This document shows positions 9,584 through 47,826 of a DNA stretch of 64,000 nt, one piece after another (position 1 is the first letter of the stretch; each line of letters starts with the position of its first letter). A program made the translations under genes and the position numbers. Origin of the DNA: a virus (Duplodnaviria; Caudoviricetes). The stretch lies in IMG/VR virus record IMGVR_UViG_2648501258_000001, positions 33,613 to 97,612 of that record; one strand, written 5' to 3'. Under the pieces are notes generated by a model. It did not search any database. It saw nothing but the letters and a program-made list of their open reading frames with translations, and had not been told where the DNA came from.

Positions 9584-9920
9584 CTATTACGGCAAGAGCA
9601 TGTCCACGAACAAACACCCAATATCTTCCGACAGGGTGAGCGGTGCAGAACTTCTCAAGTGAGATGCGCTTCTCTTTCGTGTAAGGACCAGCTCGCATTA
9701 TTGTCTTAGGGCATAGCCGCATTGCCATATCCCTTCCAGTTTTCGTAGGAACGCCCTTCCTGGGCTTACGCTTGAACTGTGTACGCATATGGTTATGAGC
9801 AGACTCATAGGAAGCAGCCCACACTGTAGCGAAGCTCACAACCATGCAGTCATTAGTCTCACGGTACTTCGCACGTATCTCCTTGTGTTGTTCCCAATTG
9901 TCTATCCAATCAGTGACCAT
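9483..9920 (-). CDS. Papain-like (Cys-His-Asp) peptidase-type phage protein
   Basis: NDCMVVSFA ... GHALAVIDGVIYD. Confidence 0.55.
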   Translation of the reverse strand: MVTDWIDNWEQHKEIRAKYRETNDCMVVSFATVWAASYESAHNHMRTQFKRKPRKGVPTKTGRDMAMRLCPKTIMRAGPYTKEKRISLEKFCTAHPVGRYWVFVRGHALAVIDGVIYDHSHKPRRMVQTAYRVYPVQFYPDKYNG

Positions 9921-10479
9921 AGTTGCACCCAATGTCAAACTGCATCTCATCAATGGTGACACGCTCAGCGTATCTTTCTGCGATGTGTTGGCAGATTGTA
10001 TCGGAGTATCCGGCAGAACGCAACTCTTCTGCGATAATTTGTGAACGATTGAACTTGAATGTTCTCCAAGCTGCGTGTGCAACCCCTACATTGTCGAATG
10101 TCCCGAGGTAGGTCGAGTCTGCATACGCCTTGTATCTTGTTCCGCTCCTGTTCATGGAAACACCGAGAGGTAGCTCAGACTTGTCCTTCTTTCTATTATC
10201 CTGCATCCAACCGTTTACACAGCGTGGCAGGAAGCAGCAATTCTCGGGAGAGTAAACAGAACCTCCGAAAAGGTCTTTATCTAGCTCGTTTCCTTCCCAC
10301 GCTTGACTCTCCATCCATGCCTTGAATGTACTGAATGTCAACCATTCTCTTGCAATTGGAGTACCAAGTCTCCTGTTTCTGTCCAGCATTCCTTTCCACG
10401 TACTGTAGAAGGGACAGATGATCCGCTTACCATCGTGTGTCTTGTATGTTGCATCATTTATTCCAATTCCGTATAACAA
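9910..10479 (-). CDS. HNH homing endonuclease with AP2-like C-terminus
   Basis: YGIGIND, W.GML.R, ELDKD..YSPENCCF....N, YLGTF...AH.AW. Confidence 0.85.
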   Translation of the reverse strand: MLYGIGINDATYKTHDGKRIICPFYSTWKGMLDRNRRLGTPIAREWLTFSTFKAWMESQAWEGNELDKDLFGGSVYSPENCCFLPRCVNGWMQDNRKKDKSELPLGVSMNRSGTRYKAYADSTYLGTFDNVGVAHAAWRTFKFNRSQIIAEELRSAGYSDTICQHIAERYAERVTIDEMQFDIGCNYGH

Positions 10480-10495
10480 GGGCTTCTCCTATGCT

Positions 10496-10774
10496 GATAG
10501 ATTCGTAGTGGAGGCAAACCTCTCCCAAGGCTCGCCATACAGACTATTGCCTGCCTTCGACGTGCCGTTGGGTTCACCTCCGTGCGTACTCATGCTGATG
10601 AGTTCGTGAGCGGGCAGCATGTGCTGCAAGCGGCTGAGAGCCTTCCTACATATAGTAGTCGTCGCCAGACTGTTCTCTCATTCAACCTCAGTTGCCCCTC
10701 TGGCAATCCTCTTCATGGGGCGTGTATCATCGAGCCGGTGAGGGAGGGCGTTGCCCCGACATGTCTCTCTCAAT
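10496..10774 (-). ncRNA. Multi-domain structured RNA, copy A
   Basis: Shares motifs and covarying helices with 47004-47294; starts just after promoter. Confidence 0.75.
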
Positions 10775-10782
10775 GCATGCGT

Positions 10783-10843
10783 ATTGTTGCACAGAAAATT
10801 AATTTGTCAATGGGGTTGACATGGTTCATAGAATCAGTAGAAT
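10783..10843. promoter_or_regulatory. Back-to-back divergent promoters
   Basis: Minus TTGACA-N16-AACAAT (10810-10783); plus TTGACA-N16-TAGAAT (10816-10843). Confidence 0.7.
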
Positions 10844-10879
10844 GGGCCACAACGGCTCAACTAGAAAAGGAGAAATACA

Positions 10880-11209
10880 ATGGCTTCTACTCACGTCACA
10901 TCTGGTCACAACACCTTGGAAATTACCGACTCGTTTGGTGACTCTGCCCAGTTTCAAATCGGTGCCACAGGCATCTATCTTGTGATTGGACACAAGCACG
11001 CCAACCCTGATCGTACCATTTCCATTGCTATCACCGAGGAATCTTCCATAGCGCTGCGAGATGCCCTTATTCGCTCCTTTCCATTGACAGCCTCCAAGCC
11101 GTCTGTCAAGGTCGATACTGTGGGCGAGCTGTCCAGCTTCGAAGTGGTTGGCGGGAGCGTCGTAATCAACGCTAGTGCTAATTCCACTGTAATCATTAAC
11201 AACAAATAA
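10880..11209 (+). CDS. Hypothetical protein
   Basis: AAGGAGA RBS, first gene after promoter. Confidence 0.7.
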   Translation: MASTHVTSGHNTLEITDSFGDSAQFQIGATGIYLVIGHKHANPDRTISIAITEESSIALRDALIRSFPLTASKPSVKVDTVGELSSFEVVGGSVVINASANSTVIINNK

Positions 11210-11220
11210 GGAGATTCAAA

Positions 11221-11619
11221 ATGACACATCAATACAAAGTAGGTGATCGCGTTAAACTGGTTACGAATGGTAGCTATCCCCACTACAAGCCAGGGATGGA
11301 AGGTACTGTAGTCGGCAAGTCCCGGCACGTAGGTGACGTAGTTGAGGTTGCTGTGGACGGGGATGCTAGATACCCAGAAGGCTTGAACTTCTATCTCCGT
11401 GAAATCACTCCACTCGTAACGGACGAACTCTCAGACGTTGGAATTTTCTTCCTTATCCGTCAAAAGAAAGACGATCCTTCAAAAGTGAAGGTTTGCTGGG
11501 CAGAGTCAACCGTGTCCCGGATGTTCACTAGTCGGGAACGTGCAGAGATTGTTGCTAATCGTCAAAATTTAAACTACCCGGAGTGGAACTACTTCGTTGT
11601 TGCAAAGGAGAGTGTATAA
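11221..11619 (+). CDS. Hypothetical protein, KOW/SH3-like N-terminus
   Basis: YKVGDRVKL; AAGGAG RBS. Confidence 0.7.
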   Translation: MTHQYKVGDRVKLVTNGSYPHYKPGMEGTVVGKSRHVGDVVEVAVDGDARYPEGLNFYLREITPLVTDELSDVGIFFLIRQKKDDPSKVKVCWAESTVSRMFTSRERAEIVANRQNLNYPEWNYFVVAKESV

Positions 11620-12752
11620 TGGTTGAACATACTGAACGTAAACTGGCACGTATCGTCCTGATCGACTCCCTGCACCCAATCGAAGGTGCTGACCGTATCG
11701 AACTAGCAATGGTTGGTGGCTGGCAGGTTGTTGTGCAGAAAGGCTTGTATGTTCCCGGCAGTAAGGCTGTCTACTTCGAAGTAGATTCGTTGCTTCCATT
11801 GGATCGCCCATGCTTTGCGTCTCTGTCGGGTATCAGCTCGAAGCTGCAATTCGTCATCGACGGCCACCAGTATGCTCGCATAAAGACCATGAAACTGCGT
11901 AAGCAGCTCTCTCAGGGCTTCTGTGTGCCTGCAAGCGAAGTGGTAGCCAGCCATTTGGATGTTGATACCGACATGACCAAAGCTCTCGGTGTGATCAAGT
12001 ATGAGAGTGCTGGCGAGAAAGGTATGAATGGTACTCCTGGCATGAAGACTGGTTCTTCTGTGCTTGGCTTCCCGAAATTTATCCCGAAGACTGATCAAAC
12101 TCGTTTGCAAAATATCCCTGTCCAGTTTGCACAGGCTCGGGACTCTGGTGAGCTGTTCGAGAAGACCTTCAAGCTTGATGGCTCTAGCCTCACTGCGTTC
12201 ATTAAGGACGGCACCCTGGGAGTTGCATCTCGTAACGTTGGATTCCGGGTCAAGGATGAAATAATCCCACTGGTCACTGCCGTTAAGAGATTCTTGCAGG
12301 GTAAAGGCTGGAAGCGTGTAATCAAGGCAGATGATAATGCTTTCATTCAAATGGCAGAGAAGGCTGGCCTGCTGTCTGTACTGTCTCGGAAAGAAGTGGG
12401 GCTAGGTAATATTGCAATTCAAGGTGAAATGGTCGGCCCTTCCATTCAGAAAAACTTTGAAGGTGTTGCAGAGAACGAGTTCTACTGCTACGATATTTAC
12501 TTGATTGATGAGCAGCGCTACATGCTCCCTAAAGAGCGTCAGGAATTCTGTAATAAGTATTACATCAGTCACGTTCCTCTGGCTTCTAACCACGCTGTGA
12601 CTCTGCCTGTGGATGTTGCATCTGCTATTGCTGACGCGGACGGTCCTAGCGGCCTGAAAGGTAAATACCGTGAAGGTTTTGTCTACAAGTCGATGACTCG
12701 TGACTTCTCGTTCAAGGTGATCAGTAACGCCTACTTGCTCAAGGAGGAATAA
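11619..12752 (+). CDS. RNA ligase, DRB0094/Rnl5 family
   Basis: RKLARIV..I..I.GADRIE N-domain, PKTDQTR, KLDGSS, QGEMVG, REGFVYK, SFKVISN.YLL. Confidence 0.9.
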   Translation: MVEHTERKLARIVLIDSLHPIEGADRIELAMVGGWQVVVQKGLYVPGSKAVYFEVDSLLPLDRPCFASLSGISSKLQFVIDGHQYARIKTMKLRKQLSQGFCVPASEVVASHLDVDTDMTKALGVIKYESAGEKGMNGTPGMKTGSSVLGFPKFIPKTDQTRLQNIPVQFAQARDSGELFEKTFKLDGSSLTAFIKDGTLGVASRNVGFRVKDEIIPLVTAVKRFLQGKGWKRVIKADDNAFIQMAEKAGLLSVLSRKEVGLGNIAIQGEMVGPSIQKNFEGVAENEFYCYDIYLIDEQRYMLPKERQEFCNKYYISHVPLASNHAVTLPVDVASAIADADGPSGLKGKYREGFVYKSMTRDFSFKVISNAYLLKEE

Positions 12753-24815: not shown

Positions 24816-25606
24816 TGTGAAGCTCCTGCATCATCTGCAATTTTCGCAGCGCTGGACTTCTTAGCATTAGCCGTTGGTTGACTAGCTGCATCATCTCCAG
24901 GCTTAGTTTCTGTCTTTGTCGTAGTCCCAGTCTTACGTCCCTTGTTAGGAGTCGTTCTAATCTTAATCGCAACATTCTCTACGTCTGTGTAAGTTGCTTG
25001 CTCCATTTGAATACTAGGGAACAATCCTAGCCCGCTATCTGCATCTTCTGCGAAAGACAGAGAAGTCATGGAGATGTTGGACCAAGAGCGGGCAATTAGA
25101 TTACCGTTATACTCTACGAGAGTGAAAGACTCTTTCTTCTCGTACATGTCGATTAGATCGAATCGTACAGCTTGAGCTGTCTTGACCTTAGTCTGTGCTG
25201 TTACAATTACAGTAGGGATAGTGCTGGCTGTAAACTGAGCTACAACCTCTGGTAAGAAGCTACGCCACTTAGCGCCTTCACTTACAATCTTCACTGGCAC
25301 CGTAGTCTCTGTGTCGTTTGTAAACTGCTTCCGCGACCCAGTTGGAAATGTCACTGTCTCTTGTTTCAGGCCAATCGTATCAAGAGTTGTACTGTAACTT
25401 CTATCTGGTCTACTATAATTGAAGTCTGCGTCTGACAAGATCGCCTTTAAACTAAACTTCTTGTTATCTGTTGTAGTGTGATCCGAGATGTATGATCCAC
25501 TAGACAACGGGTGCTTTGTGATTTGGGCGGTGTACGTTTCCTCGATATTCGTAATAGCATCGAAGTAAAGCACATCGCCGTTTGCACGGCGAATAGCGTA
25601 AGTCAT
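24812..25606 (-). CDS. Baseplate/tail-tube initiator protein
   Basis: FDA......ITKHP..SG..ISDH; follows tape measure. Confidence 0.7.
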   Translation of the reverse strand: MTYAIRRANGDVLYFDAITNIEETYTAQITKHPLSSGSYISDHTTTDNKKFSLKAILSDADFNYSRPDRSYSTTLDTIGLKQETVTFPTGSRKQFTNDTETTVPVKIVSEGAKWRSFLPEVVAQFTASTIPTVIVTAQTKVKTAQAVRFDLIDMYEKKESFTLVEYNGNLIARSWSNISMTSLSFAEDADSGLGLFPSIQMEQATYTDVENVAIKIRTTPNKGRKTGTTTKTETKPGDDAASQPTANAKKSSAAKIADDAGASQ

Positions 25607-27951
25607 TACTTAGACTCCTTGGTGTTAATCATTGCGTCTCGTAGAACATCTTTGAAAGCGTCCTTAACCATCCCAGGCATAAGAGCAATATTGTCTGCTG
25701 TGATACTTCCACCGCCTCCACCGCCAATTGTAACTGGCATGTTGACTTCGATTGGTGGCAGCTTCATACCATCTGCTGTCATGAATGTCTGTTTAAGTTC
25801 TTCTAGTTTTTCAAGAAGCCCTGCACTATCGAAAGATTGTCTTTGAACGTCTGCTTGATTTGGAATAGATGCCATAGACTCTGCTGTATACTTCTGAGTC
25901 AGTTGAGCATTAACCCAATCTGGTCCCATCACAGTAGCCAACATGTTACGTGCGTTAGCTTCGACAGTAGTACCAGAGTTGTTTGTCTGCTTAGCATACT
26001 GTCCAGCAGCAACGAAACGATCCACAGATGAGTTGAATAGCGCCATGAGAGCTGTCAGCTCTTTCATCGTTGCTACCAGCATTTCAGGGAAGCTAAGCCC
26101 ATCAAGTCCACCTGCCAACTCTAGAGTCTGGTCAAGTGCAAACTTCATGTTATCCCCGAACGTCTTGGCCTGTGCTGCTAGCTCTGTTAGAGCTTGTGTT
26201 GCAGCGGGAGAAGAAGCCAACCAACGTCCAAACAGGCTGTCTCCACCTTCGGCGTATGTGATCAGATCATCTAGAGCTAGGACGATTAAACCAATAGCGG
26301 ATGCAACACCTCCGAATGGAAGCATTACCAATCCAGCTGTTACACCAAGAGCGGCAAGCTGTCCACCAGTGAGCCCAAACAAAGCAGCAATCTGTGGTAG
26401 CATCCCGAGGACAGTACCACCAACATTAATGAAAGCATTAACTGGTTCAATCAGCAAGTTGAACGCTTCACCTAGAGCTTTAACTCCCGGCTCGGCATCC
26501 TTCATACCGTCAGCCATTGCCTTGAAGAACTTACCCATACCCTTGTCAAACCCAGCAGCAGAGAACACTCCAACTGCATCAGAGAATGCGTTATTCATAC
26601 GAGCTTGTTGTGCAGCTGTAGACTCCATAGACTTCTCAAGCGCTCCACCTGATCTTGCACGTTCTGCAAGAATCTTAGCGAACTTCTCAAGTACGGCTGT
26701 AGATTTGACTGTGCCATTTTTCATGGCGTCCATCAACTTAGCTACACCTTTCTCATCTGTACCGAACCCAGCAGCTTCTGCCATTGCTGACATTGCTCCA
26801 GGCATACGTTCCGCCAACTGCCCTTTCAGTTCTTCGGACATTACTTGGCCCTTGTTCATCATCTGTTCGATAGCTCGCATAGAGCCCTTCATAGATTCAG
26901 AATCAAGTCCCATTGTACGTCCATACTCTGAAACACCTTGGAAGATGTTTTGAACAGACTCAGTGGACATTCCAGAAGTTTGTCCAGAAGCTAGCATCTT
27001 GTTGTAAGATGGCGCTACTTGGCGATAGTCCATACCAATTGTATTGGAAAGATTCTTAACCCAAGCACTCTGTTCTTGCCCTGCTGACTCGCTTCCCATC
27101 ACAGCTGTCATCGCAAGCTGTTGTGCCTGCATTTGCTGGTTGATCTTGTTGAGTTGGCTAAATGCAAAAGCTGCTCCTAGTCCCGGAATAGCTCCACGCA
27201 TGAAGCCCATACCAGCACCAGCGATACCGCCGCCTAGGGCACCCTCTCTGGTCGTTCTAGTACGTGACCCGCCACTACCCCCTGTGCTGCTCACTCGCGT
27301 GCGTACAGTGAACTCGTGCTGGCTAATAGCTGCTCTGATCTGGGCTCTGAGGGCGGCTTGGTCTACATGAAGTTTCAGCTTAGGGTCTTTTAGGTCGATG
27401 GTCATTGCACCGATCTTACCCTTAGCTGCCATCAAGCTCTTACGGACATTTGAAATGAACTTGGCTTGACTGATATCAGCATCAATCTTTAATTTGTATT
27501 TAGACTCAGTACCTGTTTTCCAAGTGCGGAGCTGTTTCTCTGCTTCTTTCAAACTGATAGTGACAGGAAGTTTTACTTGCATCTGTCCAAGCAGTGTGCG
27601 AATGAATCTCTTCTGAGCTACAAGATCAGCAACATCCACTTTGATATTATTCAAACGGATGGGAGTCTTATCTAGTCTATCGCAGATTTTCTTCGACACG
27701 ACCATCAGAGCTTCTTCGCTAACGTTGAAGTTTCTGAAAGTGATCTTAGCGTTAGTAGCCTTTTCTAGTTGGGCACGGAGCGTTCTTGAGTCGAGGCTTA
27801 CCTTGATGTTGAATTTCTTATTGGCTGCTGTTCCAAACTGTTGCAGCATTCCAGTGACTTTTTCTAGCCTTTTCTCAAAGGCTGCAAGAGGTCGAGCGTC
27901 TACGTTAAACTTCAACGTGCCCGTTAGTCTTGCAATTTCTTCTTGGATCAT
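25606..27951 (-). CDS. Tape measure protein
   Basis: AIEQMMNKGQVMSEELKGQLAERMPGA; TM segments. Confidence 0.92.
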   Translation of the reverse strand: MIQEEIARLTGTLKFNVDARPLAAFEKRLEKVTGMLQQFGTAANKKFNIKVSLDSRTLRAQLEKATNAKITFRNFNVSEEALMVVSKKICDRLDKTPIRLNNIKVDVADLVAQKRFIRTLLGQMQVKLPVTISLKEAEKQLRTWKTGTESKYKLKIDADISQAKFISNVRKSLMAAKGKIGAMTIDLKDPKLKLHVDQAALRAQIRAAISQHEFTVRTRVSSTGGSGGSRTRTTREGALGGGIAGAGMGFMRGAIPGLGAAFAFSQLNKINQQMQAQQLAMTAVMGSESAGQEQSAWVKNLSNTIGMDYRQVAPSYNKMLASGQTSGMSTESVQNIFQGVSEYGRTMGLDSESMKGSMRAIEQMMNKGQVMSEELKGQLAERMPGAMSAMAEAAGFGTDEKGVAKLMDAMKNGTVKSTAVLEKFAKILAERARSGGALEKSMESTAAQQARMNNAFSDAVGVFSAAGFDKGMGKFFKAMADGMKDAEPGVKALGEAFNLLIEPVNAFINVGGTVLGMLPQIAALFGLTGGQLAALGVTAGLVMLPFGGVASAIGLIVLALDDLITYAEGGDSLFGRWLASSPAATQALTELAAQAKTFGDNMKFALDQTLELAGGLDGLSFPEMLVATMKELTALMALFNSSVDRFVAAGQYAKQTNNSGTTVEANARNMLATVMGPDWVNAQLTQKYTAESMASIPNQADVQRQSFDSAGLLEKLEELKQTFMTADGMKLPPIEVNMPVTIGGGGGGSITADNIALMPGMVKDAFKDVLRDAMINTKESK

Positions 27952-33392: not shown

Positions 33393-33897
33393 TGTATCCT
33401 CTCTTGGTCGGAATACCTATTGTATCTCCTGCACGTGTTTCTTTCTGTGCCCAAGTCCTCAATGTCTTCTCAGAGAGTTGACTGAAAGGTTCAAGGGTTC
33501 TGATTTGATCACAAGAGCAGCCCATTATGTAAAGCACCACGGCTTGCCTAACTTCTTCGGCAGAGAACTTTGATTTGTGATTGTGTTGACCTTGTTTGGG
33601 TCTTCCGCCACCACCGCCGAGTTGGTGATTGGTCAGTCTTCCAGATTTATTATGTTGTTCGATCCAGTAGCGTTCCTTCTCTTCCCACTCTGACTCAGAG
33701 ACTTCCTCCAAGAGAATAATCTCTGGAAGTTTGCCATCCGCAATCAATGCTCGTATCCACTTGGCCTTGTGTCCAGCCTCCCCATGTTTGGAAGAGTATA
33801 CGTGTTGAGCTTTTCTTTTCGCGATGGACTTTCCAGTCTTTCCGACATATCGAATCTCTTGGGCATCTGGCGAAACAAGTGCATAAATGTACGGCAT
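33376..33897 (-). CDS. GIY-YIG homing endonuclease
   Basis: YIYAL..P...IRYVGKT....R, E..WI, LTN...GG. Confidence 0.85.
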   Translation of the reverse strand: MPYIYALVSPDAQEIRYVGKTGKSIAKRKAQHVYSSKHGEAGHKAKWIRALIADGKLPEIILLEEVSESEWEEKERYWIEQHNKSGRLTNHQLGGGGGRPKQGQHNHKSKFSAEEVRQAVVLYIMGCSCDQIRTLEPFSQLSEKTLRTWAQKETRAGDTIGIPTKRGYNALSK

Positions 33898-46531: not shown

Positions 46532-46651
46532 AATCTTTCCTTGTAGGATGTATCGTATTAGGTGTGATCCGTGGATTTACAGGACGAAAGGAGGAGAACA
46601 TCCAAACCCGGATCACATAAACTGTTAAGACATTTCAGTCTGTGTATGATG

Positions 46652-46680
46652 ATTATACCATCAGGTCTTGCACATGTCAA
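46652..46680 (-). promoter_or_regulatory. Consensus sigma70 promoter driving tRNA cluster
   Basis: TTGACA-N17-TATAAT. Confidence 0.85.
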
Positions 46681-46702
46681 TAACACAGAGTAAATATAAT
46701 TG

Positions 46703-46903
46703 TCAATAATCAGATGAAGAAGATTTCATTGCTGTCACACCGTCTGTGGGGTATCGTCCTCCAATGTACTCTCGCTCTGGCGAGGAATGTTTAGACATAT
46801 ACTGACAAGCAAAGCAGAAGTCTTCTTCTTGTTTTGTGTCTGGATTATATCGGGGGATTTCATGTTTAGTTAATGCGTTATTGCAGCACCTGCACCGGCT
46901 CAT
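46703..46903 (-). CDS. Small Zn-binding protein
   Basis: CRCC...CFAC; AAGGA RBS. Confidence 0.6.
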   Translation of the reverse strand: MSRCRCCNNALTKHEIPRYNPDTKQEEDFCFACQYMSKHSSPEREYIGGRYPTDGVTAMKSSSSDY

Positions 46904-47003
46904 TGATTGATTCCTTATATGGATTTCGTATGGTTGATAGTTATTTCATATAATCTCCTAAGTGATTGATTCATAGATTATATGTATTTGATAACGCCTT
47001 TAA

Positions 47004-47294
47004 AGATGAGTTTCGTATTGGAAGGTAGACCAACCCTAGGGAAAGCCATACGAATTTAATCGCCTAAGACTTACCTACGGTCTCCCTTCCACACAGTCCC
47101 TTAAAGATTGAGATCGTGATTGGCTCACATGGGTGAGAGAGATGCTTACACATCTCAGGTTCTGTTCATTCCACCCGAAGGCGTCAACGCTACGCTATAA
47201 ACAGATTAGACTCAGCTTGGGCAGTAGCAACCTCTTCATACCCATACACTCGTTGGCCGGTGAGCGTGCTTTCGCAGACATATCTCTCCAACGA
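47004..47294 (-). ncRNA. Multi-domain structured RNA, copy B
   Basis: Homologous to 10496-10774 with compensatory changes. Confidence 0.75.
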
Positions 47295-47302
47295 CAATCA
47301 CG

Positions 47303-47383
47303 ACTATAACGTGACATATTTAAAATGTCAAGCAATAAAATCTCCAAGCGGGGATTGACTTCTCCGATATGCAATGTTACTAT
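47303..47383. promoter_or_regulatory. Back-to-back divergent promoters
   Basis: Minus TTGACA-N17-TATAGT (47331-47303); plus TTGACT-N17-TACTAT (47355-47383). Confidence 0.72.
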
Positions 47384-47412
47384 CGGGATTCAATTCGCAG
47401 AAGGAGATTCAC

Positions 47413-47826
47413 ATGACTAATTACGTTGATGTAGTAGAAGTCAATCCACTGGTGTTTGTCAACAAAATTGTTGAGCAGATTCGGAATGGATTCTACGTGC
47501 AGAACTCGATCCCAGGTTATCCCCTAGTTGGCCTACCGTATCAAATCAGACTGTTTGAGACTGACGCCCCAGCTATTCGCAATGAGCTACACAGTGATAT
47601 CCACACCGTAGTTGTTGAGGGCTACGATATCATGCAGTGGCTGCTAGATGTGCAAGACGTGGCCCTACAGGGCTTTACAATGAACATGACAGGGGCCTCG
47701 GTAGATAACTACAAGAGTGTCACGATGTTCAAGCCAGAACCTGTTAAGTTCGACCTCGCACCAGAGCCAGCTAAGCCTAAACGTGCTACAAAAGCAAAAC
47801 CAACCACAACCCAAGAAGGAGAGTAA
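47413..47826 (+). CDS. Hypothetical protein
   Basis: AAGGAG RBS. Confidence 0.7.
   Translation: MTNYVDVVEVNPLVFVNKIVEQIRNGFYVQNSIPGYPLVGLPYQIRLFETDAPAIRNELHSDIHTVVVEGYDIMQWLLDVQDVALQGFTMNMTGASVDNYKSVTMFKPEPVKFDLAPEPAKPKRATKAKPTTTQEGE

Follow-up and report, generated by a model that had tools for sequence, protein, structure and literature searches.

Comparative sequence analysis identifies two diverged copies, A and B, of one real, strand-specific structured RNA of about 290 nucleotides (nt) in a 64,000-nt stretch of phage DNA (Duplodnaviria; Caudoviricetes; positions 33,613 to 97,612 of the IMG/VR virus record IMGVR_UViG_2648501258_000001), and this whole stretch is referred to below as the window. 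The RNA family has no database entry and is new. The reading favoured here, with a probability of roughly 0.4, is that this new phage family stands at the start of a host sigma-70 transcript and would act in cis as an operon leader; a leader of the kind of HK022 put or lambda nut is the best guess on its function. The support for the RNA itself is comparative and not thermodynamic, and the single-sequence folding energy of the two copies is ordinary (minimum free energy z-scores of -0.80 and -1.73, not significant). A preliminary description of the window had noticed conserved loops joined by compensatory stems in the two copies. A covariance model of our own, R1, was built and used to search phage genomes, and the pairing covaries across the homologues.

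Copies A and B can be aligned end to end on the minus strand in a pairwise alignment. All nine sequence motifs that the preliminary description had listed as shared recur in the same order on the minus strand of both copies, in the pairwise alignment as well as in an alignment of 20 sequences. The span first given for copy A, 10496-10843, holds the RNA together with both of its neighbouring promoters, and the RNA proper occupies about 10488-10776. The back-to-back arrangement of these promoters was recognized correctly, and each copy lies directly behind a TTGACA promoter that is back-to-back with a rightward one. The two RNAs and the promoters are as follows.

10488-10776, minus strand: whole RNA copy A, delimited by nhmmer and covariance-model matches, with the predicted +1 near 10776 and ending with the X2 motif
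46997-47296, minus strand: whole RNA copy B, matched by covariance model R1 with 135.4 bits
10783-10810, minus strand: predicted promoter of copy A, TTGACA, 16 nt, AACAAT preceded by TG, 10/12 consensus matches
10816-10843, plus strand: predicted rightward promoter back-to-back with that of copy A, TTGACA, 16 nt, TAGAAT, 11/12 matches
47303-47331, minus strand: predicted promoter of copy B, TTGACA, 17 nt, TATAGT, 11/12 matches

Both RNAs begin a few bases after a near-consensus promoter of the sigma-70 type, and a promoter is found in the equivalent upstream position in the homologues inspected. The promoter of copy B is the one labelled 'putative promoter_11' in the annotation of phage PAK_P4. 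Neither 10200-11000 nor 46600-47500 contains a terminator-like site on the RNA strand. In a crude map of the longest open reading frames (ORFs), the transcription direction diverges near 10.8 kb and 47.35 kb only, which agrees with the earlier statement that these are the only two divergent switches, and the same map has one convergent switch near 12.8 kb.

The 5' domain of the RNA comprises 146 model positions, four helices (P1, P2, P3, and P3a) and a pseudoknot (PK1), with about 40 invariant positions at the joints. The invariant joints are AGAGAYATGTC, CTCACCGG, and ATGAAGAGG. Its parts are listed here, the helices as given by pair counts.

10632-10781, minus strand: 5' domain of copy A, matched by R1 with 108.6 bits
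10769-10774/10729-10734, minus strand: P1 of copy A
10717-10721/10694-10698, minus strand: P2 of copy A
10699-10704/10664-10669, minus strand: pseudoknot PK1 of copy A
10675-10680/10635-10640, minus strand: P3 of copy A
10646-10658, minus strand: hairpin P3a of copy A
47158-47300, minus strand: 5' domain of copy B, with PK1 at 47224-47228/47189-47193

The pairing of the 5' domain was counted twice. In 35 aligned sequences with hand-written helices, 94.8% of 902 cells are paired, compared to 32-41% when the partners are slid by 1-3 columns, and none of 500 shuffles reaches the observed pairing. When 46 matches, 42 of them distinct, are realigned to R1, the 42 distinct homologues have 97.0% of 1056 cells paired, compared to 32-40% after sliding, and again 0/500 shuffles attain this level. 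In the latter set P1 is paired in 100%, P3 in 99.6%, and P3a in 99.3% of cells, with double changes at nearly all pairs. PK1 connects the loop of P2 with the internal loop of P3 (GCCAGA/TCTGGC in A, GCTAC/GTAGC in B), is paired in 100% of cells and has double changes in 5/5 pairs; as PK1 is outside the model, its pairing was not fitted. The preliminary description had placed the pseudoknot in the 3' domain instead of the 5' domain. A candidate pseudoknot in the 3' domain, TTCGTAT/ATACGAA, was rejected on inspection of the alignment, in which it holds in copy B and is lacking in the other members. A U-G pair is retained at one position of P2 in 36 of the 42 sequences and a G-U pair at one position of P8, in the 3' domain, in 33/33, and these retained pairs indicate that the constraint acts on this strand as RNA.

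The 3' domain contains hairpin P5, a stretch termed X1, a long hairpin formed by P7 and P8, and a second stretch, X2, and carries the conserved GTATGGC and CCTTGGGA within the long hairpin.

10614-10627, minus strand: hairpin P5 of copy A (GCAGC-ACAT-GCTGC), double changes in 5/5 pairs in 33 sequences
10588-10603, minus strand: X1 of copy A, a stable hairpin with the core ATCAGCAT, predicted fold -6.7 kcal/mol for a 28-nt stretch
10510-10581, minus strand: long 3' hairpin domain of copy A, with P7 at 10571-10581/10510-10520 and the inner hairpin P8 at 10539-10555
10488-10501, minus strand: X2 of copy A, with the core ATCAGCAT again, 101 nt after X1
47139-47156, minus strand: P4 of copy B
47124-47137, minus strand: P5 of copy B
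47097-47113, minus strand: X1 of copy B
47079-47090/47020-47031, minus strand: P7 of copy B
46997-47011, minus strand: X2 of copy B, with the core ATCTTTAA

In a plain MAFFT alignment of 33 sequences, 81.4% of the cells of the 3' domain are paired, compared to 32-45% when slid, and P5, P7 (88.6% of cells paired), and P8 (93.5%) each covary. Most of the helix pairs proposed at the outset survive a comparison of 33-42 distinct homologues: ATTGAG/CTCGAT and TCGTTGG/CCAACGA are homologous and covary as P1, GCCCC/GGGGC and TGGGTA/TGCCCA do so as P2, and the 3' helix of 11-12 base pairs is homologous in both copies and covaries as P7. One of the equations was wrong. The counterpart in copy B of GCAGCA/TGCTGC is not GAGATG/CATCTC but CTCAC/GTGAG, which forms P5, and the GAGATG hairpin is P4, an element that copy A does not have.

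X1 and X2 are similar stretches of about 20 nt immediately before and after the long P7 hairpin, and their cores are identical within one RNA, namely ATCAGCAT in copy A and ATCTTTAA in copy B. The distance between X1 and X2 is 101 nt in both copies and 94-116 nt across the family. Among the 33 aligned sequences, the longest word common to X1 and X2 has a mean length of 9.3 nt (range 5-13), whereas X1 of one sequence and X2 of another share a word of 5.4 nt on average. The identical core measures 7-13 nt in 32 of the 33 and 5 nt, with one mismatch, in homologue L104. A total of 26 distinct X cores occur in this set, and close relatives carry single-base changes of the core in X1 and X2 alike, as in AGCGTCATG, AGTGTCATG, and AGCTTCATG (GCGTC, GTGTC, and GCTTC); in the same way a CTCA-to-CTGA change is present in both X1 and X2 of L136 and L137. 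Within the genome of the window and within G005, G006, and G007, the cores of A and B differ, while in the Pseudomonas aeruginosa phages they are alike (ATCTGCAT). X1 makes up the loop and 3' strand of a stable hairpin, for which most sequences give -5 to -8 kcal/mol, and X2 is only weakly structured. The flanks of X1 and X2 differ in a conserved manner, which makes simple gene conversion unlikely. In two Pakpunavirus A-type sequences from IMG/VR, L006 and L102, the X1 hairpin is extended by an internal repeat, and the core ATCTGCAT is present three times per RNA. The identity of X1 and X2 is accounted for by none of the readings discussed below and is the most interesting point of the family.

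Several explanations of the X motif were considered and set aside. No complement of at least 8 nt to either X core exists in the RNAs, and five whole genomes have none in a common location; shorter complements to the P8 loop were seen by inspection in copy B only. The cores of A (TATCAGCAT) and B (TCAATCTTTAA) lie next to each other at 27474-27492 on the plus strand, within a 781-amino-acid (aa) ORF on the minus strand (25606-27951), so that the late messenger RNA would bear complements of both. This place was discarded as a target in trans and is probably due to chance, as the co-occurrence has no equivalent in G006 or G007. A likeness to the SrpA site was also rejected; the published palindrome type is unlike X (PMC5945682).

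Identical cores on both sides of a conserved structured unit, 94-116 nt apart, might also be taken as marks of cleavage. The RNA would then be self-cleaving or processed by a nuclease, being cut near X1 and X2 so that a P7 unit of about 100 nt is freed as from a processed repeat array. An RNA ligase gene is located on the divergent arm beside the A-type copies of both the window and PAK_P4. Nevertheless, PAK_P3 has the ligase without the RNA, no ribozyme family of Rfam 15 is matched, the RNA contains no guide complementary to X, and a host nuclease would not need cores that differ among phages, which together make processing very improbable. The C4 antisense RNA of phages P1 and P7 lies between flanking repeats (a1b1 and a2b2, the latter at a ribosome-binding site) and carries their complements. 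The present family resembles it as a structured RNA between direct repeats, and in A-type copies the downstream repeat adjoins the first gene's ribosome-binding site. A C4-like model was rejected, since neither the P7 domain nor any other part of the RNA contains a complement of X, and no Rfam C4 match was obtained.

The family is found in phages only. In a blastn comparison against 50,697 phage records, copy A matches 260 places in 152 records, all of Pseudomonas phages, and copy B matches 61 records, 60 of Pseudomonas phages and one of Pectobacterium phage Bobbio. In IMG/VR, 25 stretches contain a strict three-motif pattern. A related pattern retrieved 40 stretches from metagenomes (24 true members, 13 cases of a conserved coding stretch, and 3 other chance matches) and 22 from bacterial and archaeal contigs, one genome per species. 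The latter comprise 1 true member (L177), 2 other chance matches, and 19 instances of one conserved coding stretch with a constant span of 79 nt, which, read by eye, may be a Clp-type ATPase motif. With a looser initial pattern, the matches listed are mostly chance. L177 is filed under a Thaumarchaeota metagenome-assembled genome and has a true B-like copy followed by a zinc-ribbon-like ORF and a serine transfer RNA (tRNA-Ser) gene; it looks like a contig of a Pseudomonas-type phage that was binned into an archaeal genome.

The 97,612-bp virus record to which the window belongs contains exactly two copies. By model R1, two copies are also present in 5/5 related records (PAK_P4, C11, and three IMG/VR genomes), so that two is the number in Pakpunavirus-like genomes, and a single copy is present in each of four more distant phages with genomes of 67-104 kb. 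No R1 match exists in the 88,097 bases of PAK_P3 (genus Nankokuvirus). A remote member in the 107-kb phage vB_PpS_SYP is likewise positioned at a divergent switch, and it is labelled as a hypothetical protein there. Short hypothetical proteins are annotated over the RNA in several phages, including L224 (3938-4183, gene 113 of vB_PpS_SYP), Bitten, psageK4, and others, and in view of the covariation such proteins are probably false gene calls. In a tree of 44 distinct sequences, rooted at the midpoint only, all A-type copies group together in a clade with 99/99 support that lies within the B-like sequences, with the single-copy forms outside. Copy A accordingly seems to be a later duplicate of a B-like ancestor.

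Rfam 15, with 4227 families that include HDV-like, HEARO, ARRPOF, C4, riboswitches, and ribozymes, gives no match at the gathering score at either locus, in agreement with the preliminary description, in which the RNA was not recognized. The 17 matches in the window at the gathering score are all tRNAs. At E<=10, the two loci give 3 and 5 weak matches to implausible families, the best scoring 15.8-20.7 bits against cut-offs of 37-100. The records of PAK_P4, C11, and phiMK have no RNA feature at these loci. No published description was found, and the supplementary lists of transcription start sites, termination sites, and noncoding RNAs (ncRNAs) for PAK_P4 could contain an entry. For PAK_P3, the published account gives ncRNA1/2 at 85.2-86.4 kb and a leader before gp49 (PMC10914365). 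Identity with these RNAs was rejected, since R1 has no match in PAK_P3 and the parts of that genome that were checked lack the motifs. A search of sequencing runs with the Pakpunavirus B-type locus listed no RNA run.

The genes that surround the copies bear on function. In the genes behind copy A, 10477-10490 comprises a Shine-Dalgarno (SD) sequence and the TTG start of the first gene (9910-10479, minus strand), which encodes an HNH endonuclease (PHROGs phrog_953, E 3.6e-55) and is followed by small genes. The 3' end of X2 enters this SD sequence, AGGAG. In relatives, the first gene in the HNH slot (e.g., 8883-9203 of L031) is DUF4326-like by eye, and its SD sequence is again touched by X2; the exchange of an HNH for a DUF4326-like gene in one slot suggests insertion or replacement by a homing endonuclease. 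X2 adjoins the SD sequence of the first gene in copy A of the window, L031, L127, L137, the L130/L043/L087 group, and the A copies of G006 and G007. In PAK_P4, an A-type copy is followed by gp041-gp053 and then by a primase/helicase gene. On the divergent arm of copy A, the rightward promoter would drive three genes, the last of which is the RNA ligase gene (11583-12752; Pfam PHA02142 and RNA_ligase).

Behind copy B, a G-poor, A-rich spacer is followed by a strong SD sequence with a minimal ORF.

46941-46959, minus strand: strong SD sequence and two-codon mini-ORF (ATG AAA TAA), ahead of ORF 46703-46903

The next gene is the ORF 46703-46903, which encodes a zinc-ribbon-like protein of 66 aa (phrog_10364), and after it come an ORF of 107 aa (phrog_3900), 19 tRNA genes (ARAGORN), and a long leftward run to about 12.9 kb. 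Clusters of tRNA genes on the same strand are found downstream of the B-type copies of the window, L101, L132, L009, and PAK_P4. Another 12 B-type homologues likewise have a strong SD sequence (AAGGAG or AGGAG) ahead of a start codon, a single sense codon, and TAA. The mini-ORF of L011 has four sense codons rather than one, L139 shows the SD sequence and ATG up to the point where its sequence stops before any stop codon, and the P. aeruginosa B-type copies, L108, L115, L132, and L177 have no mini-ORF.

A cis-acting leader is favoured by four features of this arrangement. The RNA has a fixed promoter-proximal position, no terminator lies behind it, X2 contacts the SD sequence, and the copies sit at the heads of two long blocks. 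Copy B opens the block in which the zinc-ribbon-like ORF and the tRNA cluster are followed by the long leftward run, and copy A heads a leftward block that extends to the primase/helicase gene in PAK_P4. Same-strand genes stand behind the RNA in every context seen (the window, C11, PAK_P4, and vB_PpS_SYP). The proposed mechanism begins with the RNA folding on the emerging transcript, where it would alter the fate of its own transcript in cis. RNA polymerase might then read through pauses and terminators in the manner of put or nut, and/or the access of ribosomes to the first binding site, which X2 touches in A-type copies, might be altered. The conserved 5' core would be the site of contact with a host machine common to all these phages. 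The twin X loops, being particular to their locus, would serve as an address for a putative locus-specific partner.

The contact between X2 and the SD sequence can also be read in terms of translation. A riboswitch-like or protein-operated leader would use the 5' domain for sensing a ligand or factor and the 3' domain as an expression platform for the first gene. Its joints are invariant and its helices variable, X2 adjoins the SD sequence in A-type copies and in the single-copy L043 group, and the P7 strands resemble an SD/anti-SD pair, with a purine-rich 5' strand and a CCUCC-like 3' strand. The first genes, however, are unlike each other (HNH or DUF4326-like by eye after A, zinc-ribbon-like after B), the downstream genes provide no clue to a ligand, and in B-type copies the first start codon is 40-110 nt past X2. 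Moreover, no known riboswitch class of Rfam 15 is matched and the need for X1 is left unexplained, and a translational leader of this kind is therefore unlikely.

Several findings weigh against a cis-acting leader. A second consensus promoter is located 17 nt after X2 in L060, L024, and L006 (3/3 distinct Pakpunavirus A-type sequences), so that the downstream genes there could be transcribed without the RNA. In the window, X2 of copy B is followed after about 300 nt by a promoter with 12/12 consensus matches (46652-46680), and there are many internal promoters. The sister phage PAK_P3 has no copy, which implies that phages of this life style can do without the RNA. No intrinsic terminator calling for read-through was identified, the identity of X1 and X2 is unexplained by known leader mechanisms, and the RNA, with its roughly 290 nt and pseudoknot, is far larger than put (about 70 nt, two stem-loops; PMC9378689).

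The additional promoters, directly after X2 in the Pakpunavirus sequences and about 300 nt behind copy B, would fit a stand-alone RNA that acts in trans as a scaffold, a sponge, or part of a ribonucleoprotein, is made in bulk from a strong promoter, and targets a host machine while the genes are served by promoters of their own. Its large two-domain build, with about 40 of 146 positions of the 5' domain invariant, recalls RNAs that have a conserved binding partner, and most genomes keep two paralogues. On the other hand, the RNA strand has no terminator-like site after X2, X2 overlaps the SD sequence of the next gene in A-type copies, and the RNA always heads a gene block and is never isolated. 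In addition, the PAK_P4 record, which is based on RNA sequencing, annotates no stable RNA here. An RNA acting in trans is thus possible though doubtful, and the cis-acting leader is retained as the preferred reading.

The preliminary description had suggested an origin primer or R-loop RNA, a ribozyme, or a protein-binding RNA. Protein binding is possible, and a cis-acting leader, which that list lacked, accounts for the arrangement of the locus at least as well. In the origin reading, an R-loop between the divergent promoters would prime DNA synthesis, with one origin per copy. Known origin transcripts include RNA II of ColE1 and the R-loops of oriF and oriG in T4, and they share with the present RNA a promoter-proximal position, divergent transcription and, for copy A, the neighbourhood of replication genes. 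Divergent promoter pairs are present at both copies and also at the copy of vB_PpS_SYP. The cumulative guanine-cytosine skew reaches its global minimum at copy B (80-81 kb of the genome), which is also a strand switch, and an AT-rich stretch lies behind this copy; the slope of the skew changes at copy A (about 44 kb), beside the block through which the replication genes are reached in PAK_P4. However, the skew tracks gene orientation and its maximum, at about 5-6 kb of the genome and outside the window, is not opposite B, so that no origin is singled out. The conserved loops, the pseudoknot, and the retained G-U pairs argue for a folded free RNA and not a hybrid, and PAK_P3 replicates without the RNA. 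A model in which X1 RNA pairs with X2 DNA was dropped on reasoning, since nascent X2 RNA would pair with the template strand just as well, leaving X1 RNA with no advantage over it. Priming of replication is consequently improbable.

Among known systems, HK022 put is the closest in arrangement to the proposed cis-acting leader. The put RNA is a cis-acting anti-termination element with proven action on RNA polymerase, and it suppresses pausing and termination via the beta' zinc-binding domain of the elongating enzyme (PMC9378689). Like putL and putR, the present RNA has two paralogues in a genome, and each of them follows closely on a host-type promoter at the head of a long operon; the structure is conserved in both cases, with no adjacent dedicated gene needed. 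In contrast, it has at least nine helices and a pseudoknot, no sequence likeness to put was seen, action on the polymerase is proven for put only, and put lacks a twin identical motif around a third domain. The nut sites of the lambda type consist of boxA and boxB and are read by the N protein. They are likewise phage-specific short hairpins in leaders and head two operons, whereas the present family has two identical cores in one RNA, which are unlike from one operon to the other in the genome of the window, G005, G006, and G007, together with a large conserved RNA core, and no N-like protein was identified. GOLLD, ROOL, and HEARO are large phage-associated structured RNAs of unknown role. 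The family is similar to them in its large, intricate fold and its presence in phage DNA, often near tRNA genes; none of them is matched even at E<=10, and they differ in size, motifs, and promoter-proximal position.

A bolder form of the leader reading, which the sequence comparison makes conceivable though quite unlikely, is a new class of large ribo-regulators. Its conserved pseudoknotted core would be the part that binds to the host apparatus, RNA polymerase during elongation being the likeliest target, and its twin identical, fast-evolving hairpin loops would give each operon and each phage a private address for a locus-specific partner. If this is true, the reading of the address by a partner would allow separate control of related phages that co-infect a cell and of the two operons within a single phage, and the concerted change of X1 and X2 among close relatives would be a form of specificity evolution undescribed for any RNA leader.

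The RNA is carried by at least 152 sequenced Pseudomonas phages, including the well-studied Pakpunavirus members PAK_P4 and C11, and is absent from their annotation and from Rfam, for which the covariation is already sufficient for an entry. The twin identical loops offer a simple genetic handle. As the RNA marks the starts of two large blocks, one for replication and one for tRNAs and late genes, it is a strong candidate for an element that controls timing or elongation in phages that otherwise depend wholly on the host RNA polymerase. Should RNA polymerase be its target, it would count as a put-like element of a second and much larger kind, useful for the engineering of Pseudomonas phages.

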